Of a stretch of 64,000 nucleotides of DNA, positions 19,559 through 37,897 are shown piece after piece (within the stretch, counting starts at the first letter, position 1; the number at the start of each line of letters is the position of its first letter). Source of the DNA: an uncultured Cytophagia bacterium (GTDB lineage Bacteria > Zhuqueibacterota > Zhuqueibacteria > Oleimicrobiales > Geothermoviventaceae); assembly GCA_964644845.1 (NCBI GenBank), contig CAZXXS010000097.1, positions 153,838 to 217,837 on the forward strand, in the 5' to 3' direction. The notes beneath the pieces are model-generated. The model had not been told where the DNA came from. It saw nothing but the letters and a program-made list of their open reading frames with translations, and did no database searches. The translations under genes were made by a program, and so were the position numbers.

Positions 19559-20080
19559 ATGCGGTCAACGAAGACAATTGTTGCGTTCGCTGTTCTTGGG
19601 ATTTTTCTCGTTTCTGCAGCTACGCATGCCCAGGAAAGGCAGAAAAAGGTAGCTGCCAGTACGCAGGGTGCAGCCAGGTACTACTTGGGTTCGCTCGGTG
19701 GAACCTCCGAAGAGCTCTTGATGAACGTTAATGTGTGGGGCTTTGTGTTGAAACCCGGGCAGTACATGGTCCCGGTGAAAACGGATCTCGTGTCTTTGAT
19801 CTCTTACGCCGGTGGTCCGTTGGAAGAAGCGAGCTTGAAGCGCGTGCAGTTGATTCGGGGGACAACGAAAGACGGTGAACCCACGGTTTTCACCGTGAAC
19901 TTGCAGAAGTATCTGGAGCAGGGGGACCGCTCACTCTTGCCGACGTTGCGGCCTGGCGACACTGTGGTGATTCGGGCGGGGAGAGGATACGGTTTCAAAC
20001 GTGTCCTCGAGTATGTGTGGCGGATCGCCGTGATCGTGCAGGCGTACGCCCTGTTTAGCTACTACCTCAAGCGTAGCTGA
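19559..20080 (+). CDS. short polysaccharide export protein (Poly_export/SLBB domain, Wza-like)
   Basis: 173 aa with a signal peptide and an SLBB-like LRPGDTVVI motif. Much shorter than canonical Wza. Confidence 0.6.
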   Translation: MRSTKTIVAFAVLGIFLVSAATHAQERQKKVAASTQGAARYYLGSLGGTSEELLMNVNVWGFVLKPGQYMVPVKTDLVSLISYAGGPLEEASLKRVQLIRGTTKDGEPTVFTVNLQKYLEQGDRSLLPTLRPGDTVVIRAGRGYGFKRVLEYVWRIAVIVQAYALFSYYLKRS

Positions 20081-20154
20081 GGCAAACTCCGTACCGCTGT
20101 TGTAGCAGGTTTGTCATCCGCTTCTTTCCTGAGACGAAACTGCCGGGTCTGGAA

Positions 20155-20718
20155 ATGCACTACGAGTCGTCAGACACTCTCCGCTGGTACGCCCTTTACA
20201 CAAAATCGCGCCACGAGAAGAAGGTGGATCTGCAACTTCGGGAGAAGGGCTTCGAATCCTACCTTCCCTTAAGAGGTGTGTGGCGGCAGTGGAGCGACAG
20301 GCGAAAACTTGTCGAAGAGCCGCTTTTTCGCTGTTACGTCTTTGTACACACGAATGAGAAGCAACGAGTGCGTGCCCTACAGACATACGGGGCTGTGCGA
20401 TTTGTGAGCTTTGATGGTCGCCCGGCGGTCGTGCGCGACGAAGAAATTGAGACGATCAAGCGGATTTTGAAAGAGTTTCCTGAAGCGGAAGCCTGCGAAC
20501 CGTTTTCGGTAGGCGATCTGGTTGAGATCGTGCGTGGTCCGCTAACGGGGATTATGGGGAGACTGGAAGAAATCAGAGGGGCCCGACGGCTCGTAGTAAC
20601 CATTGACTCGATTCATCAAGGGGTGCGTTTCGAGATCGATAGGTTGGACGTGCGTCTGCTGCAGAAGGCGAGGATTCAGGAGAGCCACCAGTACGATCGT
20701 TACCGTTTCAGACCGTAA
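20155..20718 (+). CDS. UpxY-family transcription antiterminator (NusG paralog)
   Basis: 187 aa. N-terminal WYALYTKSRHEKKV NGN-domain signature typical of Bacteroidota UpxY, plus a KOW-like C-terminus. Confidence 0.7.
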   Translation: MHYESSDTLRWYALYTKSRHEKKVDLQLREKGFESYLPLRGVWRQWSDRRKLVEEPLFRCYVFVHTNEKQRVRALQTYGAVRFVSFDGRPAVVRDEEIETIKRILKEFPEAEACEPFSVGDLVEIVRGPLTGIMGRLEEIRGARRLVVTIDSIHQGVRFEIDRLDVRLLQKARIQESHQYDRYRFRP

Positions 20719-20721
20719 ATC

Positions 20722-21798
20722 TCACCTCTCGGCCCGGTAGAGCAAGTAGACGGCGACACTGCCGAACAAGATGTTCCCGATCCAAGCCCCTAACCAGGGG
20801 GTCAAGCGCCCATTGTGACCGAGGGACTGGCCGATCCGGATGATCCCGAAGTACAAAAAACAAATCGCCAGGCTGATGCCAAATCCCACCATCGCTCCAC
20901 TCCGCCGCTTGGTGGACGCCAGTGGCGCACCGAACATCACGATGATGAGGTTTGAAAACGGGAAAGCGATCTTCATGTAAAGATCGACCAACCATTGCCG
21001 CGGATTCCCGCCGTTCCGTTTCACTTCCCGAATAAAAAGCTTGAGTTCTCTGTAGGACATTTCCTCTGGAGGTTTCTGCACGCTGGCCAGGTCCGAGGGC
21101 CGGAAGTTCAGCCCGGCGAAGTGGACGTTGGCGAACGGTTGGGCCCTCTCTCCTTTCGCTTCGAAATCGCGCAAGTATCCGGACTCGAGCACCCAGATGC
21201 TGTCTTGCCAAACGAGACGGCGAGCATCCCAGCGTTTGACCATGCGGCTGCCCTTGTACTGCTGAATGCTCACGTTGTGGCCGATCTTCTTGCGGGGGTC
21301 AAAAAAACCGATGAATACACGCCGGTCGGCCGTGTCTTGAATGTAGACGTTTGCCCTGCGGATTTGAACGCGCCTTGGCACGCGGTCCAGGTACGTTCGT
21401 TTGATCTGGAACTTGCGGTCGTTTGTGATCGGTACGATCGTTTCCGAAAAATAGTAGTCCACGACGCTGACGACAAACGCGGCTACGAAAACAGGAGCCA
21501 AGATTCGGTAGATGGACACGCCGGAGCTGCGGATAGCGATCAATTCGTTGAACCGGGCCATCTGACCGATGCTGAACAAGCTCGCAAGCAGCATGGCCAC
21601 GGGTAAGATAAGTGTCATGATGTAAGGCAGGTAGTACAGGTAGTAGGAAGCAACAACGTGCCGAGGTACTTGATGGTCGATGAACCTGTCGAGGTTTTCG
21701 ATGAGGTCGACCACGACGAAGATTACCGTGAACGCGATCAATGCGAAGAAAACGGTCAACAGAAACCGGCGTAGGATGTAGCGATCCAGAAGCCTCAC
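20722..21798 (-). CDS. lptG: LPS export ABC transporter permease LptG (YjgP/YjgQ family)
   Basis: ORF 20722..21933. Start set at GTG (VRLLDRYILRRFLL…), the typical LptF/G N-terminus. Six TM helices. Confidence 0.75.
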   Translation of the reverse strand: MRLLDRYILRRFLLTVFFALIAFTVIFVVVDLIENLDRFIDHQVPRHVVASYYLYYLPYIMTLILPVAMLLASLFSIGQMARFNELIAIRSSGVSIYRILAPVFVAAFVVSVVDYYFSETIVPITNDRKFQIKRTYLDRVPRRVQIRRANVYIQDTADRRVFIGFFDPRKKIGHNVSIQQYKGSRMVKRWDARRLVWQDSIWVLESGYLRDFEAKGERAQPFANVHFAGLNFRPSDLASVQKPPEEMSYRELKLFIREVKRNGGNPRQWLVDLYMKIAFPFSNLIIVMFGAPLASTKRRSGAMVGFGISLAICFLYFGIIRIGQSLGHNGRLTPWLGAWIGNILFGSVAVYLLYRAER

Positions 21799-23177
21799 GC
21801 AGGCGTTTCCTCGTCTTCGTGTGCAAGATGAAGCCGGGTAGCGATCCGGTGCCACTGGATGAATGACGTTTCTCGTACTGATCGAAGAAGCAGGATAACC
21901 CCGGCTGCGCCGACGATGAAATTCGGTGACCACATGGCGATGAAAGGCGTGACGTATCCGCGATCGGCCAACTCCTCACCTCCGATGAGGAAGGCCCAGT
22001 ACAAGAGGAAAAAAAGTAACCCAATCCCTCCGCCAACCGCCATCCCACCGTGCCGAGCCATTACGCCAAGAGGTACACCCACCAGTACGAACACAATGCA
22101 AGCCGCAGGAATCGAGTACTTCTTGTGTACTTCCACCATCAGGCTGTTGATCGAACGCCGGTAGCTGCGGATGACGGCTTGTTCGGTCTCGATTTGGCCG
22201 AGAAGCTGTTGGTGCTGGGCGCGGGCCTGCCGCAAATCGGGTTTGCTCCAATAACGCGGTGTTCTGGTGTTGGGGGGGGACAGCCAGGGCAGGTAACGTT
22301 GTGCCACCAGAAGAGCCGATTTTTTCACTTGTTGGCGCCGCTGGTCGATTTTTTCACGGTACTTCCGTACTTCACCCAGCATCATGGCGGCACTCTTCTC
22401 ACGATCGCCACGGTAATCGGACTCCCGCCGCACGAGCACCATCCCGGGGATTTGCAGTGTGATCCGGTGTTTGGGGAATTTCAGACGCCGATACGAACTA
22501 AGGTCGTCCAGATGGACCTCGTGAATTTCGCCGCTGTACAGAGTCAGGTAAAGCAAACCGGTGCGTGGGTCAACGCGGATCTCGGCGCTGTCGGCGGTGA
22601 TGGTTTTGCGAACGTTCTCCTGGCTGTGATCGTCGATGATCACGTCCCAGGCCTTGGACACGTTTTCGCGTTCGACGATTCTCTGTGCGACCAGCGCGTA
22701 GTGTGGAATGCCGCGGTACACCACACCTGGCTGAAGTTCGAGTGTTGGTCGTTTGCGCGAAATGTCGCCCGCCAGCAGCCGTAAGCGGTGATTTGCATCC
22801 GGAAGCACGTGGTTGTTGAACCAAATCAGCACCAGCGCCAGCAGGATTGAGGCTACCAACACTGGCCGCATCAGGCGTACGAGACTAACTCCGCCCGCTT
22901 TGAAGGCTGTGATCTCGTTGTCCGAAGAGAGCCTGCCAAAGGCCATGAGTACCGACATCAGGACAGCCATCGGCACGGCCAAAGCCACGATCCAGGCCAG
23001 ATTCAGGGCGAAAAATTCCGCGATGATGCCGATGGGAAGCCCCTTGCTCAAAATTCGCCCCAATTCCCTGAAAACGAGATTGAGCAGGAAAATCAGGGTA
23101 ATAAGCGCGAACCCGAACACGAATGGTGGAATGTGTTCACGCAAAACGTAACGGGATGTTATCGAAAAAAGCTTCAC
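21795..23177 (-). CDS. lptF: LPS export ABC transporter permease LptF (YjgP/YjgQ family)
   Basis: ORF 21795..23291. Start set at GTG (VKLFSITSRYVLREHIPPF…). Overlaps lptG by 4 nt. Confidence 0.75.
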   Translation of the reverse strand: MKLFSITSRYVLREHIPPFVFGFALITLIFLLNLVFRELGRILSKGLPIGIIAEFFALNLAWIVALAVPMAVLMSVLMAFGRLSSDNEITAFKAGGVSLVRLMRPVLVASILLALVLIWFNNHVLPDANHRLRLLAGDISRKRPTLELQPGVVYRGIPHYALVAQRIVERENVSKAWDVIIDDHSQENVRKTITADSAEIRVDPRTGLLYLTLYSGEIHEVHLDDLSSYRRLKFPKHRITLQIPGMVLVRRESDYRGDREKSAAMMLGEVRKYREKIDQRRQQVKKSALLVAQRYLPWLSPPNTRTPRYWSKPDLRQARAQHQQLLGQIETEQAVIRSYRRSINSLMVEVHKKYSIPAACIVFVLVGVPLGVMARHGGMAVGGGIGLLFFLLYWAFLIGGEELADRGYVTPFIAMWSPNFIVGAAGVILLLRSVRETSFIQWHRIATRLHLAHEDEETPA

Positions 23178-24160
23178 GAGTGGCCCGGTTTTTGTAATGG
23201 TACAAAGTGCCGAACAGAACGGGACTGGGGGACTCGGATGTCCGCAAACAGAACCCGGACCGGGGCGTGGCCCTTTTCTGAGCGAGCGCATCGTCGGCTC
23301 GCCGTGAGTAAACTCTACAGAAACTGGCTGAGCGCGCGAGTAATCGAGTCTAAATCTGCCACACCGTTGGTCCGAACAACACGGCTGCAGCGACCCAAAT
23401 CGGGAAAGCCCACGAATGGTCGATCGTGTTGCAGCGCGGAACCACCCAACACCTCCCGGTTCTTAATGTACAAATGGTGCTCCGACGTTCCAAACAAAAA
23501 GGCAATTCGCCTTCAGCCTGTAGAGGGGCAACGTGCTTTGGAGTCTGTGTACACCAGCGACGCCCCCGGAAACCCGGTCCTGACATTTGTTTCGGGTTGT
23601 GCATCAGTCGCACATGCTGTCTCACAAGCGCGCACGTCGGTAAGATCTGGCGTGGTGCTTGGGCGATTTTCCGGACTCGCCAAGTCAAGTGCACCGGGAG
23701 AGATTGGGAAACGTGCGGAACAAGGCGATGCTCTTGTGCCCTCAGGTCTAGCTACCGAAACCGCTGGTGGGGGGTACTTGCCGTGGACCGGTTGGCCGGA
23801 AATCGAGGGCACGACCAGCGAGTTGAGAGCCGTCACATGTCCCAACAAGCCGTCACAGGAGTTGAAGCTTCTGGCCGGGAACCTTCGTGTGGGTGCAGCG
23901 GTCTAAGGGAGTGGTACCACGGCGTCCCTAATTCGAACTGTGTAGATGTGCGTTTCGCTTGATTTTTAAGGCGTTGTTGTGTACTTTTTGACGCGCGATG
24001 GTCAGGCAGAGAGAGTTGCAACGGTGGGAGAAAACAAGCGACGGAGGGTGTATCGGAGGTTGCTACAGGGTCCAACTTCTGCATGGGTTGCCTGGAACCC
24101 GCGCTATTTCCTACGGGGTTGGTAGACTGGTAACTGCAAAAAAGTAACGGGTTCGAGCAT

Positions 24161-27100
24161 TTGCGCCCTCCACGTCGCGGCGCTCAGGCTGTATTGAGCG
24201 CTGTTTTTCTCTCAGTGTGTCTGGTCATCGCGTGGCAGTCACCTGTGCGGGCTGCGGAAGGGAGTCGTGTGTTTTTTCGACGCCCTCCCCTTCTTGATCC
24301 CCTTAGGGCACCCCTTCTTGACACTCAGTACCACGGCATCCCGATCGATTCCCTCCACATTCAGCCGATGCCAGCGTCCATCCGGGCCCTCCGGATGACG
24401 ACGTCCGTGGACTCCACGCATCAGTTTGTCACAATCAAGTACAGCATTGGCCGCGACCAGATTTTCTACCCGCTGAAGATGCGCGTGGAGGATTTTCGGC
24501 GTCTACGTGGACAGCAGGAGCTGGCCAAACTGTGGCGGACCACGCTCTTGAAACCTCCCGAAGAGCTACTGCGCCGCCGGCGCCGGAGACAGCAGGGCGT
24601 GCGAATTGACCTGCCGGTTGAAATCCGGAGCAAAACGTTCCAAACGCTGTTTGGTGGCTCCAAGGTCGGTTTGAGCGTTACCGGGGACATCACGATTGAC
24701 GGCGGTTTCCGGCACGAGAAGCGCAGCGAAGTGAAAACCGCGCTCACGCAGGGCTCCGATTACAACTTCAAGATGGAGCAAAAGCAGCGTTTCGGAGTTG
24801 AAGGGCACATCGGCGAGAAGGTCAAGGTGCGCGTCGATCAGGACTCGGAACGCCCGTTTGATTTCGAGAACACCATCCGTTTGCAGTATCAGGGTTTCGA
24901 GGACGAAATCATCACGTCGATCGAGGCTGGGAACATCTCGTTGTCCCTACCGGCAACCCGGTTCGTGACTTTCAGCGGCCGGAACTCCGGATTGTTCGGC
25001 ATCAAGTCACAGATGGCGCTCGGCAACCTGAAAATCACCACCATCGCCAGCCAGGAGAAAGGCGAAAGCAAACGGATGAGCCTCTCCGGTGGAGCCCAGG
25101 AGAACACCCAGAAGATTGAGGATTACCAGTACAGGAGAGGGGCCTATTTCTTCCTGGATCGCTTGTACCGCGAACAATTCCGCCACTACGACGAAAACGG
25201 CTTGCACATCTACAATCCCAACTTTGCCATCACGCGCATTGAGTTGTACAAGTCGGAAGCTGGCTACGACACGCGCTACTCGGACTCGATTCGCGGGTGG
25301 GCTGTCATCGACGAGACGCCGGACAGTTTGAGGAGCTTCGATGCCGACACGACCCACGGCGTGGACCAGAATCACTATTTTGGTTACTTTCGCCGGATGG
25401 AAAAAACGGAGTACTTCGTGGATCGCGATCTCGGCTACATTCAGCTGAACATGCCTGTACGGGATGGCGAGGTGCTGGCAGTCGCTTTTGAGACCCGGAA
25501 CGGTCGAAAAGTTGGGGACATCGATTTCAATCCCGATTCCTCGAACACGATCGTCCTGCGACTGCTCAAGTCCATGAAGCCAACCCCCAAGGACAGTACC
25601 TGGGACCTGGAATGGAAAAACGTTTACTACCTCGGCGCCAGCAACATTCAGAAAGAGGGATTCGAACTCAAGATCTACTACAAGCCGCCGTCCGGCGATC
25701 CTCAAGAGACACAGCAGGTAGACGGAAAAGCGAAGACGTACCTGGAGATTTTCGGGCTTGACCGTTACGATCAGAATGGTGCGCCTCATCCCGACGGTGT
25801 AATCGATTTCGACCCCAACATCATCAACTTGGCCCGCGGTGAACTGATTTTCCCGGATTTGCAGCCTTTCGATCCCATCGGGATCTACATTGGTGACAAA
25901 CTGGTGAAACCGGAACTGAGTGCTGACAAATTCAGTCCCGTGCTTTACGACACCACGAGTCAGACGGCCATCACAGCGGCCAGCAAGTTCTACATCGAAG
26001 TCAAATCGAAGAACAAGAGCGCCAACTACCAGCTTGGTTTCAACATCATCGAGGGGTCCGAGGTTGTTACCCTGAACGGGCGCCAGCTGCAGCGCGGAAC
26101 CGATTACGTCATCGATTACTACACTGGCAACCTCACGATTCTGAACGAAGAGGCAACGTTGCCGACCGCGGACGTCCAGATTTCGTACGAGAGTAATCAG
26201 ATGTTTCAGCTGGAAAAAAAGACGTTGATTGGTACACGCGCTCAGTACGACTTCGGGCAGGATCGATTCATTGGCGGTACCTTGTTGTACATGAATCAGA
26301 GCACCATTGAGCGCAAAATCCGCGTTGGGCAGGGCCCGATGCGCAATCTCATCTGGGACATCAACGGGAAGCTCGGTTTCAGGCCCAACTTCCTTACAAA
26401 GGCGGTGAATTTCCTGCCTTTCGTCGAAACGCAAGCACCCTCCAAGCTGAACATCGAGGGTGAAATTGCACAGGTGCTGCCGAATCCCAACACCAGCAAC
26501 AACAAAGACACCGGCGATCCAAGCGGCGTTGCGTACATCGACGACTTCGAGGGTTCAAAGCGCACGATCGGTTTGAGCATCATGCGGCGCGCCTGGACCC
26601 TCGGGTCGCCACCCGCCAAGTACTACCAAGCAGGCGATCCGCTAACCACATTGCGGATGGGGCATGTGGTCTGGTACAACCCGTGGGAGCAAGTTCCCAT
26701 CAAGGAGATTTGGCCGAATCGGGATGTGAACCCGAACGTGCCCCAACGTGTCCATGTCCTGTCGATCGAGTTTACCCCGGCAGACAGTTCCCACTTGCCG
26801 CAAGATTCGCCTTACTACTTCCCGGCCGACAGTTCGTGGGGTTCCATCATGCAGGCGCTGTCCGCCGGGTACCACGATCAGACAGAAAGCAAGTTCCTCG
26901 AAATCCTCGTGCAAGGCAATGAGGGAATCCTGCACATTGACTTGGGCCAGATCTCCGAAGACGTTATTCCGAACGGAAAGCTGGACACAGAGGACAAGGC
27001 GCCGCCTGGCGGATTCCGAAATGGACTGTTGGACGAAGGGGAAGACGTCGGGCTTGACGGCATGAAGGCCAAAGATCCTAACGACTTCTGGGACATCAAC

Positions 27101-30100
27101 GGAAACGGTGTGCGAGATCCGGGCGAACCGATCAGTTGGGACGACTGGAATTACCAAAGTGGTAGCTACGTTTACGATCAGATCGACGGTACTGAGAACA
27201 ACGCGAACGACGAAGGCGGGCGCCGACCCGACACAGAAGACATCAACGGTAACGGCGCTGTGGACCTGGCTAACAATTACTTCGAGTACACCATCAATCT
27301 GGACAAGACCAGCCCCGACACGGCTTACATTTCTGGCGGCAACCCGGACGCACCTGGAGGTGGATGGTGGCAGTACCGGATTCCGTTGGACGACCTGACG
27401 CACCGCAAGGACATCGGCAACCCGGACTTCACACGGATCGAATCAATTCGGCTGTGGTTTGAGGGGTTTAAAGGCCCGAGTCGCATTCGCATCGCTGAGC
27501 TGAACCTGGTTGGCAACGACTGGAAGGAAAAAGGCGTGGCGCCGCCGAACGATCCCGAAAACTACGACGCCAACGACGACAGCACTGTGGCGGTGACGGT
27601 TGTAAACACGCACGACAACCCTGAATACAAGCCGCCAAAAGGTGTGGCTGGTGAAATCGATCCGGTGACCCGCGTGCAGGCCAAAGAGCAGTCGTTGGTA
27701 CTGAAGATCACGAATCTTCAGCCGGGTTACAGTGGGTTGGTGCAAAAAACCTTCTTCAGCCCGCAGAATTACATTCACTACGAAAAGATGAAGATGTACG
27801 TGTACGGGCGGGATCCCTTCGGTGTGCACATCCGACCAGACACCAGCTACATCGAGTTTTTCTTCCGGTTTGGCTCCGACTTGAACAACTACTACGAGAT
27901 CCGCGAGCGGGTTTACCCCGGCTGGGACGACCGTAACGAAATCGTCATTGACCTCCTGGACTTGACGGCGACGAAGCTGGACTCTTCGTTCTACGATTCC
28001 TCGGGTGTTTTCATCAAGCGGCTTTCCAACGGCAAGGAGTACCGGATCAAGGGGCGGCCGTCCTTGACCAACGTGCGAATGCTGGCCGCGGGCGTGCGGA
28101 ACCTGATGGGTGCAACGCTGGACACCACTGGCGTAACGACGCCGATTCCCTTCACTGGCGAAATCTGGATGAACGAGCTCCGTTTGAGTTACGTCAAGAA
28201 GGAGCGGGGCAAGGCCATGCGTGCCCGGGTAGATTTCGGTCTTGCCGACGTACTCAACGTGAATGCGGAGATTAACCGTCAGGACGCCGATTTCCACGAC
28301 ATCAAAACACGATTCGGCCGGGGCGACAATCGGCTTTCGACGAATTTCAACGCCAGTTTGTCCCTGGACAAGCTGCTTCCCGCCTGGCTCGGATTTTCGA
28401 TCCCGGTGAGTTACAAATTTGGCCGGTCAGAAGCGACACCAAAATACAAACCGGGTACGGACATCGAAGTTAGAAAGGATCGAATCCCGCCGGAGATCCT
28501 GGAAACCATTCAATCGCGCCAGAAGCAATCTGGCTTCAGCGTGTCGATCCGGCGAAGTACAAAATCGAAAAATTGGATTCTGGCCAACACGATCGACCGG
28601 ATTTCCGGGAGCTACAGCGAAACGCGGAGCGAAGGAAGTAATTCGACCACGAAGAGCTCGACCAACTTTTCCCAATCCGGGAGATTTGGGTACAATCTGA
28701 GCTTCGGTCGGGGTAAGTTTTTCCAGCCGTTTGCCTGGATTCGCAAAGTTCCGGTGCTCGGCGTCCTTGGCGAAACCAAGCTTTACTACACACCGCGTAC
28801 GTTTTCGGTTCAGGCTTCGGTAACCCGGTCCCGGCGGAGTTCGTTGACACGAACCGGCGCTTTAACGGGGAGCGAAACGTTCAACGTGCAGCGCCAGATT
28901 CGAGCTGGTTACAACCTCTTTGAAACGTTGGGATTTGACTTCAGCCGTAGTTACGTCTCCGACATGCGCGGGCGCCCAATGAGCGACCTCTGGAAGCGAA
29001 AATTCGGCCAAACGACAGGGATCAATCAGAACTTCAGCGTCAAGTACAACCCGAAGATTTTTGCGTGGCTGACCAACAATTTCTCGTACACAGCGGGGTA
29101 CAAATACAACGTCAACCTCCAGCAAAGGGCAACCGGCCGGAGTGCCGCTAACAATGCTAATCTCTCGGCGCAGGTCACGCTGGATCCGGCCCGGCTGTGG
29201 AGTTCCATCTTTCGTACCGGAACAACGGCGAGACGGCGTCCGGGGGCGCGAGCCGTTCGTGGCCGGAGACCTCCAGGCTCCCGAAGGGCACCGCCGGGGT
29301 CCCGGCGAAAACCCGGTACAAAGGACAAGAAGAAACAAGAGGAGAAGAAGTCTGGTTCGCCATTTCACGTGTTCGGCCTGTTCGGCAAGGTGTTCGAGAT
29401 GATCGATCCCATTCAGTTTAGCATCCAGCAGCGAACAGGTAACAACTACTACGGTTTGCAAAGCACGCAGATGCCGACGACGGCCTTCCAGTTTGGTCTC
29501 GACGACAGCACAGGCGTACCAGTACTGCAAAATGTAGGCACAAACCGTGGTTCTCAAAATTTCAACAAGGCGATTTCGATCCAGACGGGCATTTCGCCCA
29601 TGCGCAGCATGAGCATTGATTTCCGCTACAATCGTTCTGAGCAACGCAACAACACGACAACCACGACCGGCGGCTACAACGAAACGTACTTACGACTTGG
29701 CAATCTTGACATGGCTTTCCCGAACTGGACGCTCCGGTGGTCCGGATTGAGCCGCGTCAAACTGTTCAAGAAGTACGTACAGCAGGTAACCCTGGACCAT
29801 TCCTTCAGTGGCCAGCGAAATGAGACCTGGAACCTGACGCCCGAGGGGGAAAAGAACATCACCAAGCTTGACTTCCAGTCTGGGTTTCGGCCACTGATCG
29901 GCTTAAACGCTCGTTTGAAGAATGGTGTAACCGTAAACTTGCGGTACAACATGAGTGAAAACCTGAGCCAGAGCATGACCGGCGGTCTCGGATCCACGAA
30001 GCAGGTGAGTCGGGATCTGAATTTCACGGCCACGTACTCCAAACGCTCGGGGTTTCGCCTGCCTTTCTGGAAGAACAAAGAACTGCGCAACAGCATTGAT

Positions 30101-30343
30101 TTTTCGCTCAGTTTCATCTACGGCAGCAACGTTACGTACAAGAGTCGCGGTACCGAGGGGCGTTTCCAGCCGACTGCGGAAACGTCCAAGTGGACTCTGG
30201 AACCCAAGGTGACGTACTCATTCAGCACCCAGGTACGCGGTGGCGCGCATTTGCAGATTGGCCACACGAAGAATTCCTTGATGGGCGAAACCAAGATCCA
30301 AGAGCTGGGGATCAACGTCCAAATCTCCATTCGCGGCAGTTGA
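24161..30343 (+). CDS. sprA: giant (about 2060 aa) secreted outer-membrane protein, SprA/Sov-like T9SS translocon candidate
   Basis: Uninterrupted 6.2-kb ORF. N-terminal signal peptide (AVFLSVCLVIAWQSPVRAAE). Asn/Tyr/Gly/Thr-rich beta-rich composition throughout. Size and context (cyclase immediately downstream, T9SS cargo nearby) fit SprA. Family assignment is by recollection, not by a search. Confidence 0.55.
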   Translation: MRPPRRGAQAVLSAVFLSVCLVIAWQSPVRAAEGSRVFFRRPPLLDPLRAPLLDTQYHGIPIDSLHIQPMPASIRALRMTTSVDSTHQFVTIKYSIGRDQIFYPLKMRVEDFRRLRGQQELAKLWRTTLLKPPEELLRRRRRRQQGVRIDLPVEIRSKTFQTLFGGSKVGLSVTGDITIDGGFRHEKRSEVKTALTQGSDYNFKMEQKQRFGVEGHIGEKVKVRVDQDSERPFDFENTIRLQYQGFEDEIITSIEAGNISLSLPATRFVTFSGRNSGLFGIKSQMALGNLKITTIASQEKGESKRMSLSGGAQENTQKIEDYQYRRGAYFFLDRLYREQFRHYDENGLHIYNPNFAITRIELYKSEAGYDTRYSDSIRGWAVIDETPDSLRSFDADTTHGVDQNHYFGYFRRMEKTEYFVDRDLGYIQLNMPVRDGEVLAVAFETRNGRKVGDIDFNPDSSNTIVLRLLKSMKPTPKDSTWDLEWKNVYYLGASNIQKEGFELKIYYKPPSGDPQETQQVDGKAKTYLEIFGLDRYDQNGAPHPDGVIDFDPNIINLARGELIFPDLQPFDPIGIYIGDKLVKPELSADKFSPVLYDTTSQTAITAASKFYIEVKSKNKSANYQLGFNIIEGSEVVTLNGRQLQRGTDYVIDYYTGNLTILNEEATLPTADVQISYESNQMFQLEKKTLIGTRAQYDFGQDRFIGGTLLYMNQSTIERKIRVGQGPMRNLIWDINGKLGFRPNFLTKAVNFLPFVETQAPSKLNIEGEIAQVLPNPNTSNNKDTGDPSGVAYIDDFEGSKRTIGLSIMRRAWTLGSPPAKYYQAGDPLTTLRMGHVVWYNPWEQVPIKEIWPNRDVNPNVPQRVHVLSIEFTPADSSHLPQDSPYYFPADSSWGSIMQALSAGYHDQTESKFLEILVQGNEGILHIDLGQISEDVIPNGKLDTEDKAPPGGFRNGLLDEGEDVGLDGMKAKDPNDFWDINGNGVRDPGEPISWDDWNYQSGSYVYDQIDGTENNANDEGGRRPDTEDINGNGAVDLANNYFEYTINLDKTSPDTAYISGGNPDAPGGGWWQYRIPLDDLTHRKDIGNPDFTRIESIRLWFEGFKGPSRIRIAELNLVGNDWKEKGVAPPNDPENYDANDDSTVAVTVVNTHDNPEYKPPKGVAGEIDPVTRVQAKEQSLVLKITNLQPGYSGLVQKTFFSPQNYIHYEKMKMYVYGRDPFGVHIRPDTSYIEFFFRFGSDLNNYYEIRERVYPGWDDRNEIVIDLLDLTATKLDSSFYDSSGVFIKRLSNGKEYRIKGRPSLTNVRMLAAGVRNLMGATLDTTGVTTPIPFTGEIWMNELRLSYVKKERGKAMRARVDFGLADVLNVNAEINRQDADFHDIKTRFGRGDNRLSTNFNASLSLDKLLPAWLGFSIPVSYKFGRSEATPKYKPGTDIEVRKDRIPPEILETIQSRQKQSGFSVSIRRSTKSKNWILANTIDRISGSYSETRSEGSNSTTKSSTNFSQSGRFGYNLSFGRGKFFQPFAWIRKVPVLGVLGETKLYYTPRTFSVQASVTRSRRSSLTRTGALTGSETFNVQRQIRAGYNLFETLGFDFSRSYVSDMRGRPMSDLWKRKFGQTTGINQNFSVKYNPKIFAWLTNNFSYTAGYKYNVNLQQRATGRSAANNANLSAQVTLDPARLWSSIFRTGTTARRRPGARAVRGRRPPGSRRAPPGSRRKPGTKDKKKQEEKKSGSPFHVFGLFGKVFEMIDPIQFSIQQRTGNNYYGLQSTQMPTTAFQFGLDDSTGVPVLQNVGTNRGSQNFNKAISIQTGISPMRSMSIDFRYNRSEQRNNTTTTTGGYNETYLRLGNLDMAFPNWTLRWSGLSRVKLFKKYVQQVTLDHSFSGQRNETWNLTPEGEKNITKLDFQSGFRPLIGLNARLKNGVTVNLRYNMSENLSQSMTGGLGSTKQVSRDLNFTATYSKRSGFRLPFWKNKELRNSIDFSLSFIYGSNVTYKSRGTEGRFQPTAETSKWTLEPKVTYSFSTQVRGGAHLQIGHTKNSLMGETKIQELGINVQISIRGS

Positions 30344-30364
30344 CGGGAGCGCAAGGGAGGCGCT

Positions 30365-31267
30365 GTGAGACGACTGCTGATTCTCGCTGCTTTGCTGTTT
30401 TTTCTGCTCCCCAGTTTTGGGTGCGGGCAGAAGCGCGGTGCTTTTGACGGCCAGAAAGCTTTTGCGGAGCTCGAGCGTCAGGTGAGTTTTGGACCACGGT
30501 TCCCGGGTTCCGCAGGTCACGATCGCTGTCTGGACTACCTGGTTACAACCCTCCGTGGCTACACAGACGACGTTCGTCAGCAGAGTTTCACCTTCACCTA
30601 CGGACCGGAGCGTGTAACGGCCAAGGCGACCAATGTCGTTGCTCGCTTTGGGCCTGGGGGTAACCCTCGATTGCTTCTCTGTGCGCACTGGGACACGCGC
30701 CCGTGGGCCGACCGCGACCCCAATCCCGCAAACCGTCAGAAGCCGATCCTCGGGGCCAACGACGGTGCCTCAGGCGTGGCCGTGCTGTTGGAGCTGGCCA
30801 GGGTGATGCACACTCGACCGCCGCGACAGGGCGTGGTAATTGTCCTTTTTGACGCCGAGGATGAGGGGGTGGAAGGAGACGACGACAGCTACGCGATCGG
30901 TTCGAAGTTCTACGCCGAGCATCTGCCAGAAACCGAACGGCCTGAATTCGGGATCCTCCTTGACATGGTCGGTGACGCCGATCTGAACCTGTACCAAGAA
31001 GGCTACTCACTCACCTACGCCAAAGCCTACGTGGATCTGGTTTGGCAAACCGCGCAACAGCTGGGCTACCCGGAGTTCATTCCTCGTGCACAGTACTACG
31101 TGGTGGATGACCACGTGCGTTTACTGAAGGTTGGGGTGCCTTGCATCGACATCATTGACTTCGACTACCCCTACTGGCACACGCTGCAGGACACGCCCGA
31201 CAAATGCAGTGCCGCGAGCCTGGAAAAAGTGGGCCGTGTTCTGGAGCACGTAATTTACGGGTACTGA
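30365..31267 (+). CDS. M28-family glutaminyl-peptide cyclotransferase-like lipoprotein
   Basis: 300 aa with a lipobox (LLPSFGCG). Zn-binding M28 motifs HWDTRPWAD, LFDAEDEG, HTLQDT typical of animal-type glutaminyl cyclases of Bacteroidota. GTG start 22 nt after the sprA stop. Confidence 0.7.
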   Translation: MRRLLILAALLFFLLPSFGCGQKRGAFDGQKAFAELERQVSFGPRFPGSAGHDRCLDYLVTTLRGYTDDVRQQSFTFTYGPERVTAKATNVVARFGPGGNPRLLLCAHWDTRPWADRDPNPANRQKPILGANDGASGVAVLLELARVMHTRPPRQGVVIVLFDAEDEGVEGDDDSYAIGSKFYAEHLPETERPEFGILLDMVGDADLNLYQEGYSLTYAKAYVDLVWQTAQQLGYPEFIPRAQYYVVDDHVRLLKVGVPCIDIIDFDYPYWHTLQDTPDKCSAASLEKVGRVLEHVIYGY

Positions 31268-31375
31268 GCTGGACGACGTAGCGCGGAGTGCCACGACCAG
31301 GACACACCCGTGAAATACGGCTCCAGGTTTCCCCCGAGGATCTGCCCGCAATGTGTTTGAGAAATGGAGTGAAGT

Positions 31376-32230
31376 ATGCCTCGACGTTGGCCGAAAGTCA
31401 TTCTGCGGGGACCGCAGGAAGAGCGCGAGATTGTGGCAGCTGCGCTTCTTGAACACGGAGCTTTAGGAGCATGGGATACCCCAGGTTCCACGGTGATTTA
31501 CTTCCCCCCAGCGCTCTCTGAGGAGGAGGTAAAGGAACTCGTGTCCTCTGCCCTGACGCCAAAGAGCCACGTTTCCTGGGCGGTTGGCTGGGAGCATGAA
31601 CAGGACTGGATGACAGGCTGGAGGCAGTATTTCAAACCAATTGCCGTTGGCAAGCGAATAATTGTGAAACCTCCATGGGGGCAAATTCCGTCTGAGTTGG
31701 TAGGGCGCGACGTGGTAGTCGAAATCGAACCGAAAATGGCTTTTGGAACCGGGACTCATCCTTCGACGCAGCTGGTTCTTGAAGCGGAAGAAGATCTCTT
31801 GGAAAAGCGTGCTGACGTGCTGGACGTCGGGACGGGCAGTGGCATCTTGGCCATCGCGGCTGTGCTTTTGGGAGCCCGGCGTGTGGTGGCCTTCGACGTA
31901 GACACGACAGCCGTGCGAAATGCCGTGGAGAACCTACGCCGGAACAAGGTACAGGATCGTGTGTGGATTTACGCGGGCGGACCAGAATGCGTGACAGCAA
32001 GCCGTTGCTTCGATCTTGTGCTGGCGAACATCCGCACGGATGTACATCGCGAGCTCCTTGGCTTCTACCGCCAGCGTTTGAGCAGGCGGGGGCGCGTTGT
32101 GCTGTCTGGGGTTTTGCGCAGCGAAACGGCTGAATTGAACCAGCTGCTTCGGCAAGAGGGATTCACCGTCGAGCGCGTACGAGAGCGGGAAGAGTGGGCT
32201 GCCATCGAAGCAGGTGTCCTGAGCAGGTGA
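31376..32230 (+). CDS. prmA: ribosomal protein L11 methyltransferase
   Basis: 284 aa. SAM-binding motif VLDVGTGSGILAI and a PrmA-like N-terminal domain. GGAGTGAAG RBS. Confidence 0.8.
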   Translation: MPRRWPKVILRGPQEEREIVAAALLEHGALGAWDTPGSTVIYFPPALSEEEVKELVSSALTPKSHVSWAVGWEHEQDWMTGWRQYFKPIAVGKRIIVKPPWGQIPSELVGRDVVVEIEPKMAFGTGTHPSTQLVLEAEEDLLEKRADVLDVGTGSGILAIAAVLLGARRVVAFDVDTTAVRNAVENLRRNKVQDRVWIYAGGPECVTASRCFDLVLANIRTDVHRELLGFYRQRLSRRGRVVLSGVLRSETAELNQLLRQEGFTVERVREREEWAAIEAGVLSR

Positions 32231-32964
32231 CGTGGCGCCGTCGAACGCGTGCGTTTGGCGCTTTGATCCTTTCGCTGGTGTTCTTTGCCCTGTGGACAAC
32301 CGGGGTGAACGCCAGAACCCGGCCCATCCTGGTCGATTCCGTTGGCGTTCACGGGGATTCCGTTTTCGTGACGTTTCAGGCCCCGGGACTCTTCGACAAC
32401 ACCGTGCTACGAGCTCTTCGCCGTGGAGCGACCAGTGCCGTGGAGTACGAGATTCGCCTGTGGCGAGACCGGAAATTTGTACCTGACGCTTTGATTTCCA
32501 CGCGCCGGTGGCGTGTGCGCATCGTTTACGACCACCTTGAGGCAAAATACCTCCTTTTCGAAGCGGACACGAGCGCCGGATTGCCGGTAGAATTGGAAGA
32601 AGCGATTCGTCGTTGCGAACGCAGACGGCGCGAGTTTGTTTTCTCGCCGGTGCGTAGCCTGAAGCCGGGACGGTATTTTGTGAGTGTGTCAGTGGTGGTG
32701 GAGCCACTCGCGGTGGAAAACTACCGGGAACTGAAGCGCTGGGTTTCCGGGGAGGCGAAGACGCTGGCGGAACGCTTGAAGAAAGGAAATCGCGCGCAAG
32801 AGGAACGGGGGCGCCTGTTCCAGATTTTGCTCGAGCTGACCGGCTTTGGTGATCGGGTCCGTGGGGGACGATCTTTGCCTTTCGAAATTCGAAAGGATCA
32901 ACCGAGCACAAGTGGAGAAAGTGACGGGACTCACGATCGTTGGAGGGGTTTGTGCGTACATTAG
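32226..32964 (+). CDS. conserved hypothetical secreted/membrane-anchored protein (possibly DUF4390-like)
   Basis: GTG start overlapping the prmA stop by about 4 nt. N-terminal hydrophobic segment then a basic C-terminal region. Domain assignment is uncertain. Confidence 0.45.
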
Positions 32965-33441
32965 GAAGAATCTCTCGGTTCGAGAACAGCAAGAAGGGAA
33001 TGCGGGTGATCCTCCTCGCGAGCGCTTCCGGGATTACGAAAGAGGTGTGAGTCCGGGCGCGGCGGAGCTGCTTATTTCCGGCGTAACGGGCCGGGTTGGT
33101 AGAAAGTTTGCAGCAGCATTTTGAGGTTGGATCCCGGGTCTCCAGTGGAGTAGTGAGTTTCCGTTTGGGGGCGCTTGAGGCAGACCGGCGCGGGCTGGTC
33201 GTGTTCGGCAAGTCTTGCCGAAACGCAACAACGGGTAGCGGCACTCGGGGAGTGGTTTTGAGGGGCTGTCAGGCTTCTCAGTGGTCTTTTTCTGAACAGG
33301 GGAACTGGTGCTGTTGACTTTTCTCGGAGACTTGTGGGGGAAAGCTGTTGTCGTGCGGTTTGGTGCGGGGTCCGCTGCATTGACAGTCCAGCCAGGCGGC
33401 GGATGAAGGGGTGTGAACCTTTCCCAAGGAGGTGAACAAGT

Positions 33442-36400
33442 ATGCTGAAATTGCGAAAATGTCTGCTGACTGGCGCGACGGGGCTGCTTTTCCTGGCACT
33501 CGGGTTTTCTGGGTATGCTGGCACGGCTCCCCGCAATCTGGCAAAAGACCTGTCTGAAGATCTCAAGAACGCCAGAACGGAGCGACAGCTGGTGCAAGTC
33601 GTGCAGCGGGTTCAGACGTACCAACAGGAGCAAGAAGCTCGAGTTCAGGCAGCGTTGAAAGGGGTGCGGGCTAAGCAGGCGTTACTTCAAACGGCACGAA
33701 AGGCGATTTCTCCAGATGTACGCGTCCGTGCGGCGGTGCTGGCTGTCCGCGGGATGCTCCAGAGAGGGCAGAGTGTCGGCCTGGAAATTGAAAAAGCTCG
33801 AAAGGCCTACGGTGTCGCCGATGTGGCTGGGCGGGGTACAATCTCGGGCAAAGTGACGGTGGCCGGAGAGGCTCCGGAGGGCGACGTCGAGGTGGTGGCG
33901 TTTGATACGCTTGGGTACGTGGCGGATGTTGCACGCGTTGGCCCGCGAAACGCCAGGTACGTTTTGACAGTTCCCCCGGGCCGCTACTACCTGATGACGG
34001 TGAGCACGGGGTACGTCGACGAGATGTACGACGACATCCCGGCCCCCTTTGGCTCGAAAGAAGGGTGGCGTGCGGCAACTCTGGTGACTGTGAATGCTGC
34101 CGAACAGGTTGGGGACATCGATTTCGATCTGGACGTTGGCGCTACGATCACTGGGAAAATCTTCGACTCCGATGGGTACCCACTGGCGGGTACAACCGTT
34201 TCGTTTCAGCTTACCAGTGTGCAGAGTCCGATCTCGCTGCTCGAGTACGAAACCTGGACGGATGACGCCACTGGTGAGTACCGAATCCACGTGCCTGCGG
34301 CGGGTCAGTACAAACTGGCGGCCAGCTGCGATGGTTACGCGCAGGTGTGGTACGACCAGAAAGACACGTGGGAAGAGGCGGACACGCTTCTGGTACCGTC
34401 TGCGGATGCTACGGTGGCTGGCATCGACTTTTCCCTGCCGTTTCAGGGTGGAGAAGGGATTGGCTTGCCCTCAGCGAGTGAGGGTGGTGCGATCTCTGGT
34501 GTGGTGAAAGGACCAGGCGGACTGTTCCCCGTGATCGCTGCTCTGACGGTGGCTTTCGATCTGGCCGACAGTTCGGTGGCCGGATTCGGCATGTCCATGC
34601 TCGGGAATCCGTACGTGATCGGAGGCCTCCAAGACGGAGAGTACCTTGTTTACGCTGACGACATTCTGGGTGACATCCTGGGGGTCGGGAACTACGTTGG
34701 GGAATTCTACGACGACGCACAAACTCCAGACCAGGCTACCCCGGTCCAAGTGAGCAACAGCGACACAACTTTCGGGATCGATTTCGAACTGGACAAGGGA
34801 GGTAAGATTGAGGGGACTGTCACGGGACCTTCTGGGGAGCCGCTGGATTCTGTCCTTGTTGTGGTAGCCGATGCGGGAATCCTGGATGCCGCGGACGACC
34901 CGTTTTTGACCCACGTCCGACTCGGTGTTACTTTGACAGATGATGCCGGGAAATTCTCACTCTCCGGCCTTCGGACGGGTGACTACGTACTCCGGACACT
35001 GACTGTGGTCAAGCACGTCGGCGAAGTGCTGGACGAGTACTGGGACGGACACCACAGCATCTGGGATTTCCGGGAGGCGGATGTTGTGCACGTTCAGGCG
35101 CCTCGTAAGGTCTCTGGAATCAACTTCACCTTGGATGCAGGCGGGAGTGTGCAGGGGCACGTGTACGGAAGCGACGGCACTACCCCAGTCCCCGCAACAA
35201 CAATTCTGGCGCTAAACGCTGACTCGAATCTGCCGGAATTCGCGTACGGCGAAGCGGGAACGGACGGGGCCTACACGTTGGCTCCTCTGCCTTCCGGTGA
35301 CTACAAGTTGCTGGCTATCTCGGCTGACGACAAACACCTGTCTGAGTTCTACGACGGCGCCTACCGACTCGAGGATGCCAACCTCGTTCATGTGGACGCT
35401 CCTAACGCCACCGACGGGATCGATTTCACCTTGAACGAAGGTAGTGTGATTCGCGGCTTTGTTCACCTGCCGGACGGTCTGCCCGTTGGAGCGGACACGA
35501 CCTACCGTTTTCCGGTTGTGGCTTACGACGCCAACACCGGGTTAATGGTGGACTACGCGTACGTGCAGTTTCCCGGTGGGTTCCGAATCAGTAAGCTGCT
35601 GCCGGGCCAGTACAAAGTTGCTGCGCTTCCGATTCTGTACGGCTACGCGGTGACCTACGTGGGTGGTGGCGACTCGTTTGACGACGAGGCAACTGGGACA
35701 GTGAACGTTGGCCCCGGCGCGGCAGTAGATGTAAGCATTACCCTGGAGCAGGGCTCAGGCTCGATTGCAGGCACAGTAACTGAGCAAGGCACCGGTGAAC
35801 CCCTCGACTTTGCTGTCGTCATGGCCTACGACGTTACTGGGCACGCCGCGGGCTTCGGTCTGGTTGGCGCGGATCCGGAACGCATGGTGCCGAGCAATCA
35901 GCCCGGGCAGTACACCATTCGCGGCTTGCGGCCCGGCAGCTACTACGTGCGGACATTCGCTTTTACGCACGTTTTCCCTCAAGTCTCTTCGATCGATCTC
36001 GAAAACTTTGAGTTCGATCTCAGTGGAGGAGAGCTTCCGTTTTTGTCGGGTGCGAACGGCAATTTCGGACTTTTCAATCTGTACCAGGACGAGTGGTACA
36101 ACAACGTGCCTGTCGAGAATTCGAAGATCACCCTGGAGACCCTGTACACGACGATTCTGGCTTTTGTGCGTCACGGTTTCGCCGAGGACTACGAGGATGA
36201 CCTGATTCCGTTCTACCTGCCGCTGCCGTTCCAGGACACACCTGTACCAGGCGCTTCGGCCGTAGTCGTTGAGGAGGGCGGTACGGCAACGGCAGATTTT
36301 GCTCTGGCTGGTGCCACCGTCCAACAAGTCACGGCCGTGGAAGGCGAAAGGACACCCATGCCTTCGAAATTTAAGTTGTCGCAAGCCTACCCGAACCCCT

Positions 36401-36642
36401 TCAACCCGAGCACTAACTTGCAGTTAGCTCTGCCGAAGGCGGGTCGAGTTCGCGTGGTGGTGTACGATCTGCTGGGACACCCGGTGCGGCAACTGCTGGA
36501 CGGCGTTCGACCGGCGGGACTGTACACGCTCACGTGGAACGCGACAAACGACCAGGGCGAAGCTCTCCCAAGCGGTGTGTACTTCGTTAGGGTCGAGACT
36601 GGCTCCTTCAAAGCAACGCGAAAGCTTCTGCTGCTGAAGTAG
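33442..36642 (+). CDS. T9SS cargo protein: tandem carboxypeptidase-regulatory-like (CarboxypepD_reg) domains plus type-A Por C-terminal sorting domain
   Basis: 1066 aa. Signal peptide. At least 6 repeats of the G(T/S)I(S/T)G.V…G.P..(A/V).V motif. C-terminus KFKLSQAYPNPFNPSTNLQLALPKAGRVRVVVYDLLGHPV…GVYFVRVETGSFKATRKLLLLK matches the T9SS CTD. AAGGAGG RBS. Confidence 0.8.
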   Translation: MLKLRKCLLTGATGLLFLALGFSGYAGTAPRNLAKDLSEDLKNARTERQLVQVVQRVQTYQQEQEARVQAALKGVRAKQALLQTARKAISPDVRVRAAVLAVRGMLQRGQSVGLEIEKARKAYGVADVAGRGTISGKVTVAGEAPEGDVEVVAFDTLGYVADVARVGPRNARYVLTVPPGRYYLMTVSTGYVDEMYDDIPAPFGSKEGWRAATLVTVNAAEQVGDIDFDLDVGATITGKIFDSDGYPLAGTTVSFQLTSVQSPISLLEYETWTDDATGEYRIHVPAAGQYKLAASCDGYAQVWYDQKDTWEEADTLLVPSADATVAGIDFSLPFQGGEGIGLPSASEGGAISGVVKGPGGLFPVIAALTVAFDLADSSVAGFGMSMLGNPYVIGGLQDGEYLVYADDILGDILGVGNYVGEFYDDAQTPDQATPVQVSNSDTTFGIDFELDKGGKIEGTVTGPSGEPLDSVLVVVADAGILDAADDPFLTHVRLGVTLTDDAGKFSLSGLRTGDYVLRTLTVVKHVGEVLDEYWDGHHSIWDFREADVVHVQAPRKVSGINFTLDAGGSVQGHVYGSDGTTPVPATTILALNADSNLPEFAYGEAGTDGAYTLAPLPSGDYKLLAISADDKHLSEFYDGAYRLEDANLVHVDAPNATDGIDFTLNEGSVIRGFVHLPDGLPVGADTTYRFPVVAYDANTGLMVDYAYVQFPGGFRISKLLPGQYKVAALPILYGYAVTYVGGGDSFDDEATGTVNVGPGAAVDVSITLEQGSGSIAGTVTEQGTGEPLDFAVVMAYDVTGHAAGFGLVGADPERMVPSNQPGQYTIRGLRPGSYYVRTFAFTHVFPQVSSIDLENFEFDLSGGELPFLSGANGNFGLFNLYQDEWYNNVPVENSKITLETLYTTILAFVRHGFAEDYEDDLIPFYLPLPFQDTPVPGASAVVVEEGGTATADFALAGATVQQVTAVEGERTPMPSKFKLSQAYPNPFNPSTNLQLALPKAGRVRVVVYDLLGHPVRQLLDGVRPAGLYTLTWNATNDQGEALPSGVYFVRVETGSFKATRKLLLLK

Positions 36643-36672
36643 GCGAATCGGGGTGGTGGGGCGGCGGGGTTT

Positions 36673-36708
36673 AGCCCCGGTCCTGAGACACGGGCCGGGG
36701 CTTTTTTG
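36673..36708 (+). terminator. rho-independent terminator (GCCCCGGTCC-tgagaca-CGGGCCGGGGC + TTTTTT)
   Basis: 30 nt after the cargo gene stop. Seen directly. Confidence 0.8.
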
Positions 36709-37234
36709 TGGCCGCAGAGCTTGTCGGAAGAAACCCCTCTGACAACGGCGGCTGCGCCCCATGCCTTCACCGCAGCCGATTTTTCCTGGAGCCGTACCCA
36801 ACGGCAGGCGCGACCCGTTAGGGCGAGGTGGGGAATGCGTAGCTTACGGAGAAAACACGGAGCAAAGTTCTTGCCTTGGCCTGGAAAACTTGGTTGCTTC
36901 TTCGGGATCGGTTCGTCGGGTGGTCTCACGAGCGCCCGTGGGATCTTCCGCAGTCGATCTCGAGTCCCTTGGTGTCCCGGCGCAGCAAAGACACAACCCG
37001 AGTCCGAACACAGAGAGTGGACACCGGAGATGTTTGCCGATTGGTGCGCTCGTGAGCGAGGTGTTTTTGTGAACCAGGCTTATTACCTTCGACGGCCTGT
37101 GTGGGAAAATCGGGCGCTCTCCGGTGTGAACGTTCGCGTTGATTTTGTGCCGGGGCGTGTGTAATTTCCAGCGCGGTAACGGGGCGCCCGCCCTCGAGCG
37201 CGGGCGGTGGCAGTGCGACAAAAGAGAGAACAGG

Positions 37235-37897
37235 ATGCCGGCGAAAGTAGATCTCACAAAGGGACAGAACGTTGTTCTTCAAAAAGACGCTGAGGTAATC
37301 GATTTTCGCTCGGAAACGGTGGTTCTGGACGTCAGCGACGAGCAAATCGCAGTGGCGTGTCGAACGCTCACGGGCGACGAGCTGGCGCTTTCCAGCGGCG
37401 ACTGGGTCTACGTGATTTTCATCCGGCCAGATGCCCTCTACAACTTTCGCACCCGTGTGGCGGCGGTGGACAGCGCAAACAAGGTGGCTTACCTGGAGCG
37501 GCGGGATGCGGAAGTACGTCGCGTTCAGCGACGGCAGTACTTTCGTGTTTACGTTCGTGTCCGGGTTGTGGCACGACTCATTGACGACGGCCGGGTGCGG
37601 CGGGCTGTTTCGCTGGAGTACCCCGCTCAGGCGGAAAACTTGAGCGGCGGGGGCTTGCTCTTGAAGGTGGCCGGGCGGTACGAGATCGGCGATTTGTTGT
37701 CCATTCAAATTTTCCTGCCAGATGGTAAGCCGCCGGTCGAGGCCGTAGGCAAGATTGTGCGTGTTCAGAACGAACCCAAGGACGAGAACCTCGCCGCGCA
37801 CTACGGGGTGGAATTCGTGGAGATCGACGAACGCGAACGCAGCCGGATCATCGCTTTCCTGAACAAAGTCCAGGCCAGCAAGCTCGCGGGGGTGTAA
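37235..37897 (+). CDS. PilZ-domain (c-di-GMP-binding) protein
   Basis: About 220 aa from the internal ATG (MPAKVDLTKG). RRQYFRV…LSGGG PilZ signature preceded by a YcgR-N-like domain. Confidence 0.7.
   Translation: MPAKVDLTKGQNVVLQKDAEVIDFRSETVVLDVSDEQIAVACRTLTGDELALSSGDWVYVIFIRPDALYNFRTRVAAVDSANKVAYLERRDAEVRRVQRRQYFRVYVRVRVVARLIDDGRVRRAVSLEYPAQAENLSGGGLLLKVAGRYEIGDLLSIQIFLPDGKPPVEAVGKIVRVQNEPKDENLAAHYGVEFVEIDERERSRIIAFLNKVQASKLAGV

Follow-up and report, generated by a model that had tools for sequence, protein, structure and literature searches.

In Bacteroidetes, most substrates of signal peptidase I (SPI), in all compartments, start with glutamine (Gln), and the proportion of SPI substrates that do so, the Q-value, has a mean of 71% (Bochtler et al. 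2018, PMC5837995). The cyclase of Porphyromonas gingivalis is PG2157 (PgQC), and in this organism RgpA was affected when its Gln was exchanged, while RgpB and Kgp were not (PMC5837995). The same study noted that a type IX secretion system (T9SS) and high Q-values co-occur strikingly and asked whether they are linked mechanistically; from the experiments in P. gingivalis the answer was no, and pyroglutamate was described as a general feature of SPI substrates that does not control T9SS (PMC5837995). The essentiality of the glutaminyl cyclase (QC) has been credited to protein stabilization, presumably against aminopeptidases (Szczesniak et al., PMC10653852). Here we describe a stretch of 64,000 nucleotides (hereafter the window) from contig CAZXXS010000097.1 of an uncultured member of candidate division KSB1 (assembly GCA_964644845.1), in which the gene for SprA, the T9SS outer-membrane translocon, is directly followed by a gene for an M28-family QC homologue. 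Our comparative analyses indicated that this order is conserved in candidate division KSB1 and in Calditrichota, and we favor, with moderate confidence, the reading that the M28 protein is a periplasmic glutaminyl cyclase of general function, whose gene is transcribed together with sprA inside an ancient block of envelope and T9SS genes. The initial annotation of the locus had linked the two genes through cargo maturation, on the premise that T9SS secretion in Porphyromonas needs pyroglutamate formation by a QC; in view of the study cited above, this premise was overstated.

Identity of the translocon and putative cyclase genes

All coordinates are window positions. The open reading frames (ORFs) of sprA, the M28 gene, prmA, a DUF4390 gene and a cargo gene all lie on the plus strand, at the positions given by the initial annotation. 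The first of these, sprA/sov (24161 to 30343), encodes 2060 amino acids (aa), and its product scored 1020 bits with TIGR04189 (cut-off 200) and 142.6 bits with PF14349 (SprA_N, cut-off 27). It also matched the solved SprA of Flavobacterium johnsoniae (6h3i_A) in three stretches with 305 bits (E 6e-90). Thus, the earlier naming of this protein as SprA/Sov was confirmed, and a TamB/AsmA identity was ruled out, as no such family was matched in the profile searches.

Read from the TTG start at 24161, the protein begins with a Sec signal peptide, MRPPRRGAQAVLSAVFLSVCLVIAWQSPVRA followed by AEGS, with cleavage at VRA-AEGS (the hyphen marks the site, here and below), as predicted by a home-made predictor and inspection, not by SignalP. 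The 69 residues upstream of Met70 (24161 to 24370) are kept as protein among relatives, and the TTG at 24161 is therefore the likelier start. An identical database protein (P0121, 100% identity) is 1991 aa long; its shortfall of 69 aa is what a call from Met70 would produce, and a SprA called in this way would be without a signal peptide. Residues 1691 to 1735 (29231 to 29365) form a basic low-complexity insert of 45 residues rich in Arg, Pro, Lys and Gly, and a similar basic Pro/Gly-rich stretch is retained in the consensus drawn from the aligned KSB1 SprA proteins.

In comparison with F. johnsoniae SprA and P. gingivalis Sov, the window protein is alike in passing the equivalog hidden Markov model (HMM) by a wide margin, in matching the solved SprA, in its signal peptide and in the neighboring gene for a cargo protein with a C-terminal domain (CTD). 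It differs in belonging to a phylum other than Bacteroidota, in the basic insert and in its neighbors (lptFG, QC and prmA), and it falls short of F. johnsoniae SprA by approximately 340 residues (2060 versus 2403 aa).

The M28 gene (30365 to 31267) starts 21 nt behind sprA with a GTG codon preceded by a GGGAGG Shine-Dalgarno sequence. Its product matched PF04389 with 121.6 bits, and among solved structures it is closest to the QC of Tannerella forsythia (TfQC; 6qro, 222 bits, approximately 44% identity) and to PgQC (6qql, 197 bits), with E-values from 1e-57 to 1e-65, whereas aminopeptidases reached at most 44 bits. Further solved relatives are proteins of Bacteroides and Parabacteroides that have meanwhile been re-annotated as QCs. 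With the defining zinc, catalytic and pocket residues taken from PMC7948796 and PMC5837995, the window protein contains each single-zinc ligand (PgAsp149, PgAsp183 and PgHis299), a catalytic Glu matching PgGlu182/HsGlu201 and a counterpart of HsAsp248, and its motifs GANDGASG, FDAEDEG, ILLDMVG and YWHT align with those of PgQC and TfQC. Accordingly, it keeps the Asp-Gly ligand, the Glu-Asp pair of the bacteroidal type with the ligand Asp after the catalytic Glu, the Asp of LLDMVG, the DDH motif, the Trp-His motif and the Arg-Pro..Asp loop, and an HsAsp305 equivalent is likewise present within the shared M28 fold.

At the N-terminus, MRRLLILAALLFFLLPSFG is followed by a Cys that lies behind a hydrophobic region (LPSFG-C) in a lipobox which is, by inspection, non-canonical. 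Counting the window protein, 9 of the 12 aligned sequences that are not from the Protein Data Bank (PDB) have such a Cys behind the signal peptide, which suggests that the protein is anchored in the membrane like PgQC. The description of the M28 protein as glutaminyl-cyclase-like thus stands: it is a homologue of the type II (bacteroidal/animal-type) QCs and probably a lipoprotein, and we infer that it is a glutaminyl cyclase with predicted Gln-cyclizing activity.

Two features weigh against this assignment. Of the pocket residues PgArg128, Pro129, Asp132, Trp193, Phe294 and Trp298, the Arg-Pro..Asp set and Trp298 are kept, but PgTrp193 is replaced by Tyr (the relatives have W, Y or F). In addition, the 8-residue loop before the Trp-His motif, which carries PgPhe294 and is present in PgQC and TfQC, is absent; aromatic residues flank the site. 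Together with the failure of the protein to pass any NCBIfam QC model, these differences might point to an aminopeptidase rather than a cyclase, the more so as animal-type QC orthologues retain every metal-site residue of M28 enzymes and either activity fits such a sequence (Bochtler et al., PMC5837995). We nevertheless regard an aminopeptidase as very improbable. The scores separate experimentally active QCs from true aminopeptidases by a wide interval, the protein has the Glu-Asp pair specific to bacteroidal QCs along with the Arg-Pro..Asp loop and the Trp-His motif, its presumed anchor Cys resembles that of PgQC, and the roughly 5-fold enrichment of Gln at the first mature position in this lineage (see below) implies that substrates for a cyclase exist.

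The QC of a locus named Caldithrix abyssi (L170, 13337 to 14224) has no anchor Cys, and its own predicted mature N-terminus is Gln (TLVA-QFND); it may therefore be soluble, and it may be its own substrate.

Conservation of gene order behind sprA

The genome scan with the SprA alignment covers the best 80 of 490 SprA loci, at species level and with 35 to 97% identity to the window SprA, and the closest SprA proteins are those named candidate division KSB1. The QC gene lies directly behind sprA in 44 of the 58 KSB1 loci with enough downstream sequence, while the remaining loci have prmA without the QC gene (6/58) or neither gene (8/58). The sprA-QC order is also found in L001, L085, L167 and L169, and in five of six Calditrichota-like loci, one of which is named Caldithrix abyssi by a source. 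L080, the most divergent locus of the scan, belongs to Calditrichota, as its SprA shares 63% identity with a protein labelled Caldithrix abyssi SprA. The extended order sprA-M28-prmA occurs in L170, in L171 (a 4.7-Mb contig) and, within a further lineage, in L173 and L174; in L172 the M28 gene is absent and prmA follows sprA. The Calditrichota-like M28 proteins are QC orthologues, with 48 to 54% identity to the window QC and all of its motifs. Overall, the order holds down to 35% SprA identity, and by alignment the spacing is below approximately 130 nt in most loci. L082 (named Zixibacteria) begins at the QC gene and is thus uninformative about the genes upstream.

A different picture emerged for QCs of the Bacteroidia type: in none of 80 metagenomic loci carrying such a QC was SprA found within 10 kb. 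Taken together, these counts show that the sprA-QC adjacency is far beyond chance, and that the linkage is real, old and specific to lineages outside Bacteroidota. They agree with the initial annotation, according to which the linkage is not known to be described for model Bacteroidota and which had proposed synteny in related genomes as a check. Our literature searches found no paper on a linkage between sprA and a glutaminyl cyclase, and none on KSB1 together with T9SS or type IX secretion; within the text portion of the PMC5837995 supplement there are no entries for Caldithrix or Ignavibacterium. The conserved gene order thus appears to be undescribed, and all of the genes involved belong to known families.

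The QC gene is followed after 108 nt by prmA (31376 to 32230), which encodes the cytoplasmic ribosomal protein L11 methyltransferase (TIGR00406, 195.3 bits, cut-off 183.15; PF06325, 208.3 bits). The start of the DUF4390 gene (32227 to 32964) overlaps the prmA stop codon by 4 nt (GTGA), and 477 nt further downstream begins a gene for a T9SS cargo protein of 1066 aa (33442 to 36642), in agreement with the earlier placement of such a gene about 0.5 kb away. This protein carries a type A CTD (TIGR04183, 45.4 bits, cut-off 23) and repeats resembling CarboxypepD_reg (PF13620, 114 bits in four stretches), and its orthologues occupy the same position in 17 loci from the genome scan and in L167 and L169. 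Behind the cargo gene, a hairpin on the plus strand (36673 to 36702), with an 11-bp stem containing 9 GC pairs and a following T run, resembles an intrinsic terminator and probably marks where the transcription unit ends; the hairpin scan found no strong terminator-like hairpin ahead of 36673 within the unit. Upstream, the presumed promoter region of the unit is the divergent intergenic region of 869 nt (23292 to 24160), which contains no Pfam-positive ORF and no Rfam family; the Rfam scan of 20000 to 38000 gave no match at all. When three intergenic regions were compared with the nearest relatives by blastn, only the last 200-odd nt upstream of sprA were conserved, and with the closest relative (L002) alone, and no conserved regulatory element was found beyond this similarity.

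The tight spacing, the shared strand, the overlap and the persistence of the order across phyla argue for at least co-transcription. As judged from this arrangement, sprA, the QC gene, prmA and the DUF4390 gene probably form one co-oriented, co-transcribed unit, which possibly reads through into the CTD cargo gene.

An alternative hypothesis is that the adjacency is functionally meaningless and represents a slowly decaying ancestral order of housekeeping genes that may be transcribed independently. The composition of the block speaks for this hypothesis, as it mixes functions and includes the cytoplasmic prmA. Moreover, the divergent lipopolysaccharide (LPS) export permease genes lptG and lptF (20722 to 23291, minus strand; PF03739, 300.6 and 286.1 bits) are the conserved border of the block on its upstream side, and in 63 of 66 KSB1 loci they are found within 2.5 kb of sprA on that side, a higher proportion than that of QC adjacency. 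The QC gene has been lost from its position in 14 of the 58 KSB1 loci and in L172, and the loci without both QC and prmA have other housekeeping genes behind sprA, for a TP_methylase-family methyltransferase, a CDP-alcohol phosphatidyltransferase or a saccharopine dehydrogenase. The initial annotation had left prmA as an unexplained passenger, but the gene is not a stray: it is the steadiest downstream neighbor of sprA across three lineages (the window; L009, L014, L061, L068, L072 and L170 to L174), and it stands directly behind sprA when the QC gene is absent (six KSB1 loci and L172) and behind the QC gene in Calditrichota. Since lptFG are more conserved and a cytoplasmic gene is the steadiest neighbor, adjacency alone is a weak argument for shared function. 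We consider the hypothesis unlikely all the same, because the order holds across phyla and at SprA identities as low as 35%, the genes are very tightly spaced both in the window and in most other loci, and they share a strand with a translational-coupling overlap further along.

At least two of the KSB1 loci without QC and prmA have the same arrangement. In L042 (16227 to 16916) and L043 (16562 to 17260), a gene for a TP_methylase-family methyltransferase, which we take to be RsmI-like, lies behind sprA and is followed by the CDP-alcohol phosphatidyltransferase gene; L066 has ORFs that correspond to these by size and position alone.

Glutamine at predicted mature N-termini and the meaning of the linkage

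The residue at position +1, directly behind the predicted signal peptide, was assigned with the home-made predictor over approximately 1.6 Mb of loci, with Bacteroidia as the control; a first version, which often cut within the hydrophobic core (with L, F or V at +1), had been rejected and replaced by an improved one. Gln occupies +1 in 18 to 21% of the KSB1 exported proteins (per-family mean 0.195), against a background of approximately 4%, and it is the commonest +1 residue, as in the organisms of PgQC and TfQC. These KSB1 values are rough, as the same predictor gave 27 to 50% in the Bacteroidia control (per-family mean 0.374), for which the published mean is 71%, and the counts are not independent, as the loci resample orthologous genes. 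The underestimate in the control suggests that the true share in KSB1 is probably higher, yet clearly intermediate. Thus, in contrast to the Q-rule of Bacteroidetes (a Q-value of at least about 48% of SPI substrates), KSB1, with a crude estimate of approximately 20%, shows enrichment of Gln but no rule.

Under the favored reading of a general cyclase, the M28 protein would be periplasmic and membrane-anchored and would convert N-terminal Gln to pyroglutamate on any substrate of Sec and SPI that starts with Gln; the pyroglutamate would protect these exported proteins from degradation, presumably by aminopeptidases, as in Porphyromonas. The linkage to sprA, the outer-membrane translocon gene, would then be an ancient order common to KSB1 and Calditrichota, in which porU or porV often comes further downstream, and would reflect co-expression and co-inheritance in a block for envelope and secretion biogenesis rather than a cargo-specific step needed for T9SS transport. 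We infer the general substrate range from the +1 residues. The best candidate substrates in the window are LolA (16363 to 17016; SPADA-QAST) and an SLBB protein (19559 to 20080; ATHA-QERQ), both with predicted Gln at +1.

On a closer connection, the cyclase would serve the T9SS as an accessory factor and mature the N-termini of SprA, PorU or a subset of the cargo, such that secretion depends on it. Several observations lean in this direction and weigh against a purely general role, as does the roughness of the Gln estimates given above. Besides the sprA-QC order in two phyla and the co-occurrence of T9SS with high Q-values noted by Bochtler et al. (PMC5837995), SprA orthologues have Gln at +1 in approximately 40% of loci, more often than the average exported protein. 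Furthermore, 14 KSB1 loci carry, downstream of the sprA block, a gene for a protein of approximately 1600 aa with a CTD and a PorU-like sortase region (NF033707, approximately 335 bits, which does not reach the cut-off of 420), for example at 18793 to 23631 in L047, 21328 to 26124 in L061 and 16887 to 21716 in L078, and in the Calditrichota loci it is instead a PorV-like gene that lies a few genes downstream. A QC gene set between sprA and a PorU-like or porV gene predicts, by guilt by association, a T9SS accessory factor. Within the 64-kb window itself, tblastn detected no PorU-like gene.

The cargo, however, does not behave as this hypothesis would lead one to expect. The initial annotation had proposed Gln at the mature cargo N-terminus as a check, but the adjacent cargo is predicted to begin with Gly (GYA-GTAP), and in its orthologues the first residue is N, A, D, M, H, G or E, while no more than one of the 18 has Gln there (0-1/18). 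Among KSB1 CTD proteins, collected with an HMM built iteratively from the window CTD, Gln is at +1 in approximately 12 to 17% by inspection, so that they are not enriched relative to other exported proteins, whereas it is found in four of five CTD proteins of Bacteroidia. In the window, SprA, the DUF4390 protein and the cargo begin with A, R and G, respectively, and SprA proteins of loci without an adjacent QC gene begin with Gln at least as often, by eye, as those with one. Close QC homologues also occur elsewhere, namely away from sprA in L168 and beside a peptidyl-prolyl isomerase gene in L083, and the experiments in P. gingivalis oppose a role in T9SS targeting (PMC5837995). We therefore consider it quite unlikely that secretion depends on the cyclase. 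Of the functional coupling that had been read from the linkage, the conserved order and the apparent co-transcription stand, while the coupling through cargo maturation is not supported, as the adjacent cargo lacks the Gln and published experiments speak against it.

The homologue in L083 (4817 to 6993), a metagenome-assembled genome named Aminicenantes, shows 59% identity and lies directly behind a gene for a cyclophilin/FKBP-type peptidyl-prolyl isomerase; SprA is absent from this locus.

A more speculative and rather improbable hypothesis is that sprA-QC-prmA represents the ancestral state of a real partnership between T9SS and pyroglutamate formation, in which the cyclase of KSB1 and Calditrichota would be placed beside the translocon, for example to protect SprA, PorU or a subset of the cargo awaiting in the periplasm, and from which the Q-rule of Bacteroidota would have grown. 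If true, it would explain the co-occurrence of T9SS and high Q-values.

The finding shows no new mechanism. The sprA-QC pair in KSB1 and Calditrichota nevertheless supplies independent genomic-context evidence for a long co-inheritance, and probable co-expression, of the two systems. The gains are otherwise modest, namely a better annotation of the genes called 'M28 family peptidase' in KSB1 and Calditrichota, a corrected SprA start and a lineage with an intermediate Q-value. Caldithrix abyssi is a cultured organism, and co-transcription, cyclase activity and N-terminal pyroglutamate would therefore be measurable there.

Neighboring genes

In the wider window, the block is preceded, in order, by ftsK and lolA, genes for a Wzz/GNVR tyrosine kinase and an SLBB export protein, and a NusG-like gene, and it is followed by yigZ, a gldE-like gene, groEL, gcvPA and accC, so that the whole is a neighborhood of envelope and housekeeping genes. 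The GldE-like gene (38510 to 39796) lies approximately 2 kb downstream of the cargo gene, behind the yigZ-family gene, and encodes a membrane protein of the CNNM/CorC type, whose score with TIGR03520 (206 bits) does not reach the cut-off of 376. An antisense ORF of 436 aa (31934 to 33244) matched nothing in Pfam, and we took it to be a shadow of prmA and the DUF4390 gene.

The DUF4390 protein, a small and putatively periplasmic protein that the initial annotation had as a conserved hypothetical, matched PF14334 with 40 bits (cut-off 27). The GTG at 32227, within the overlap with prmA, is the likelier start, with an alternative at 32194, and the N-terminus is signal-like, with predicted cleavage at VNA-RTRP. 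The DUF4390/PlrP family has been described in PMC13001219; in beta- and gamma-proteobacteria, the gene lies 3' of rsmB. The window protein resembles Bordetella PlrP, a periplasmic protein that partners the NtrY-family kinase PlrS, in its DUF4390 domain and export signal and in the position of its gene directly 3' of a gene for a methyltransferase of the translation apparatus (rsmB there, prmA in KSB1). It differs in that the match is weak, the window unit has no kinase or regulator of the NtrYX type, and the next gene encodes the CTD cargo.

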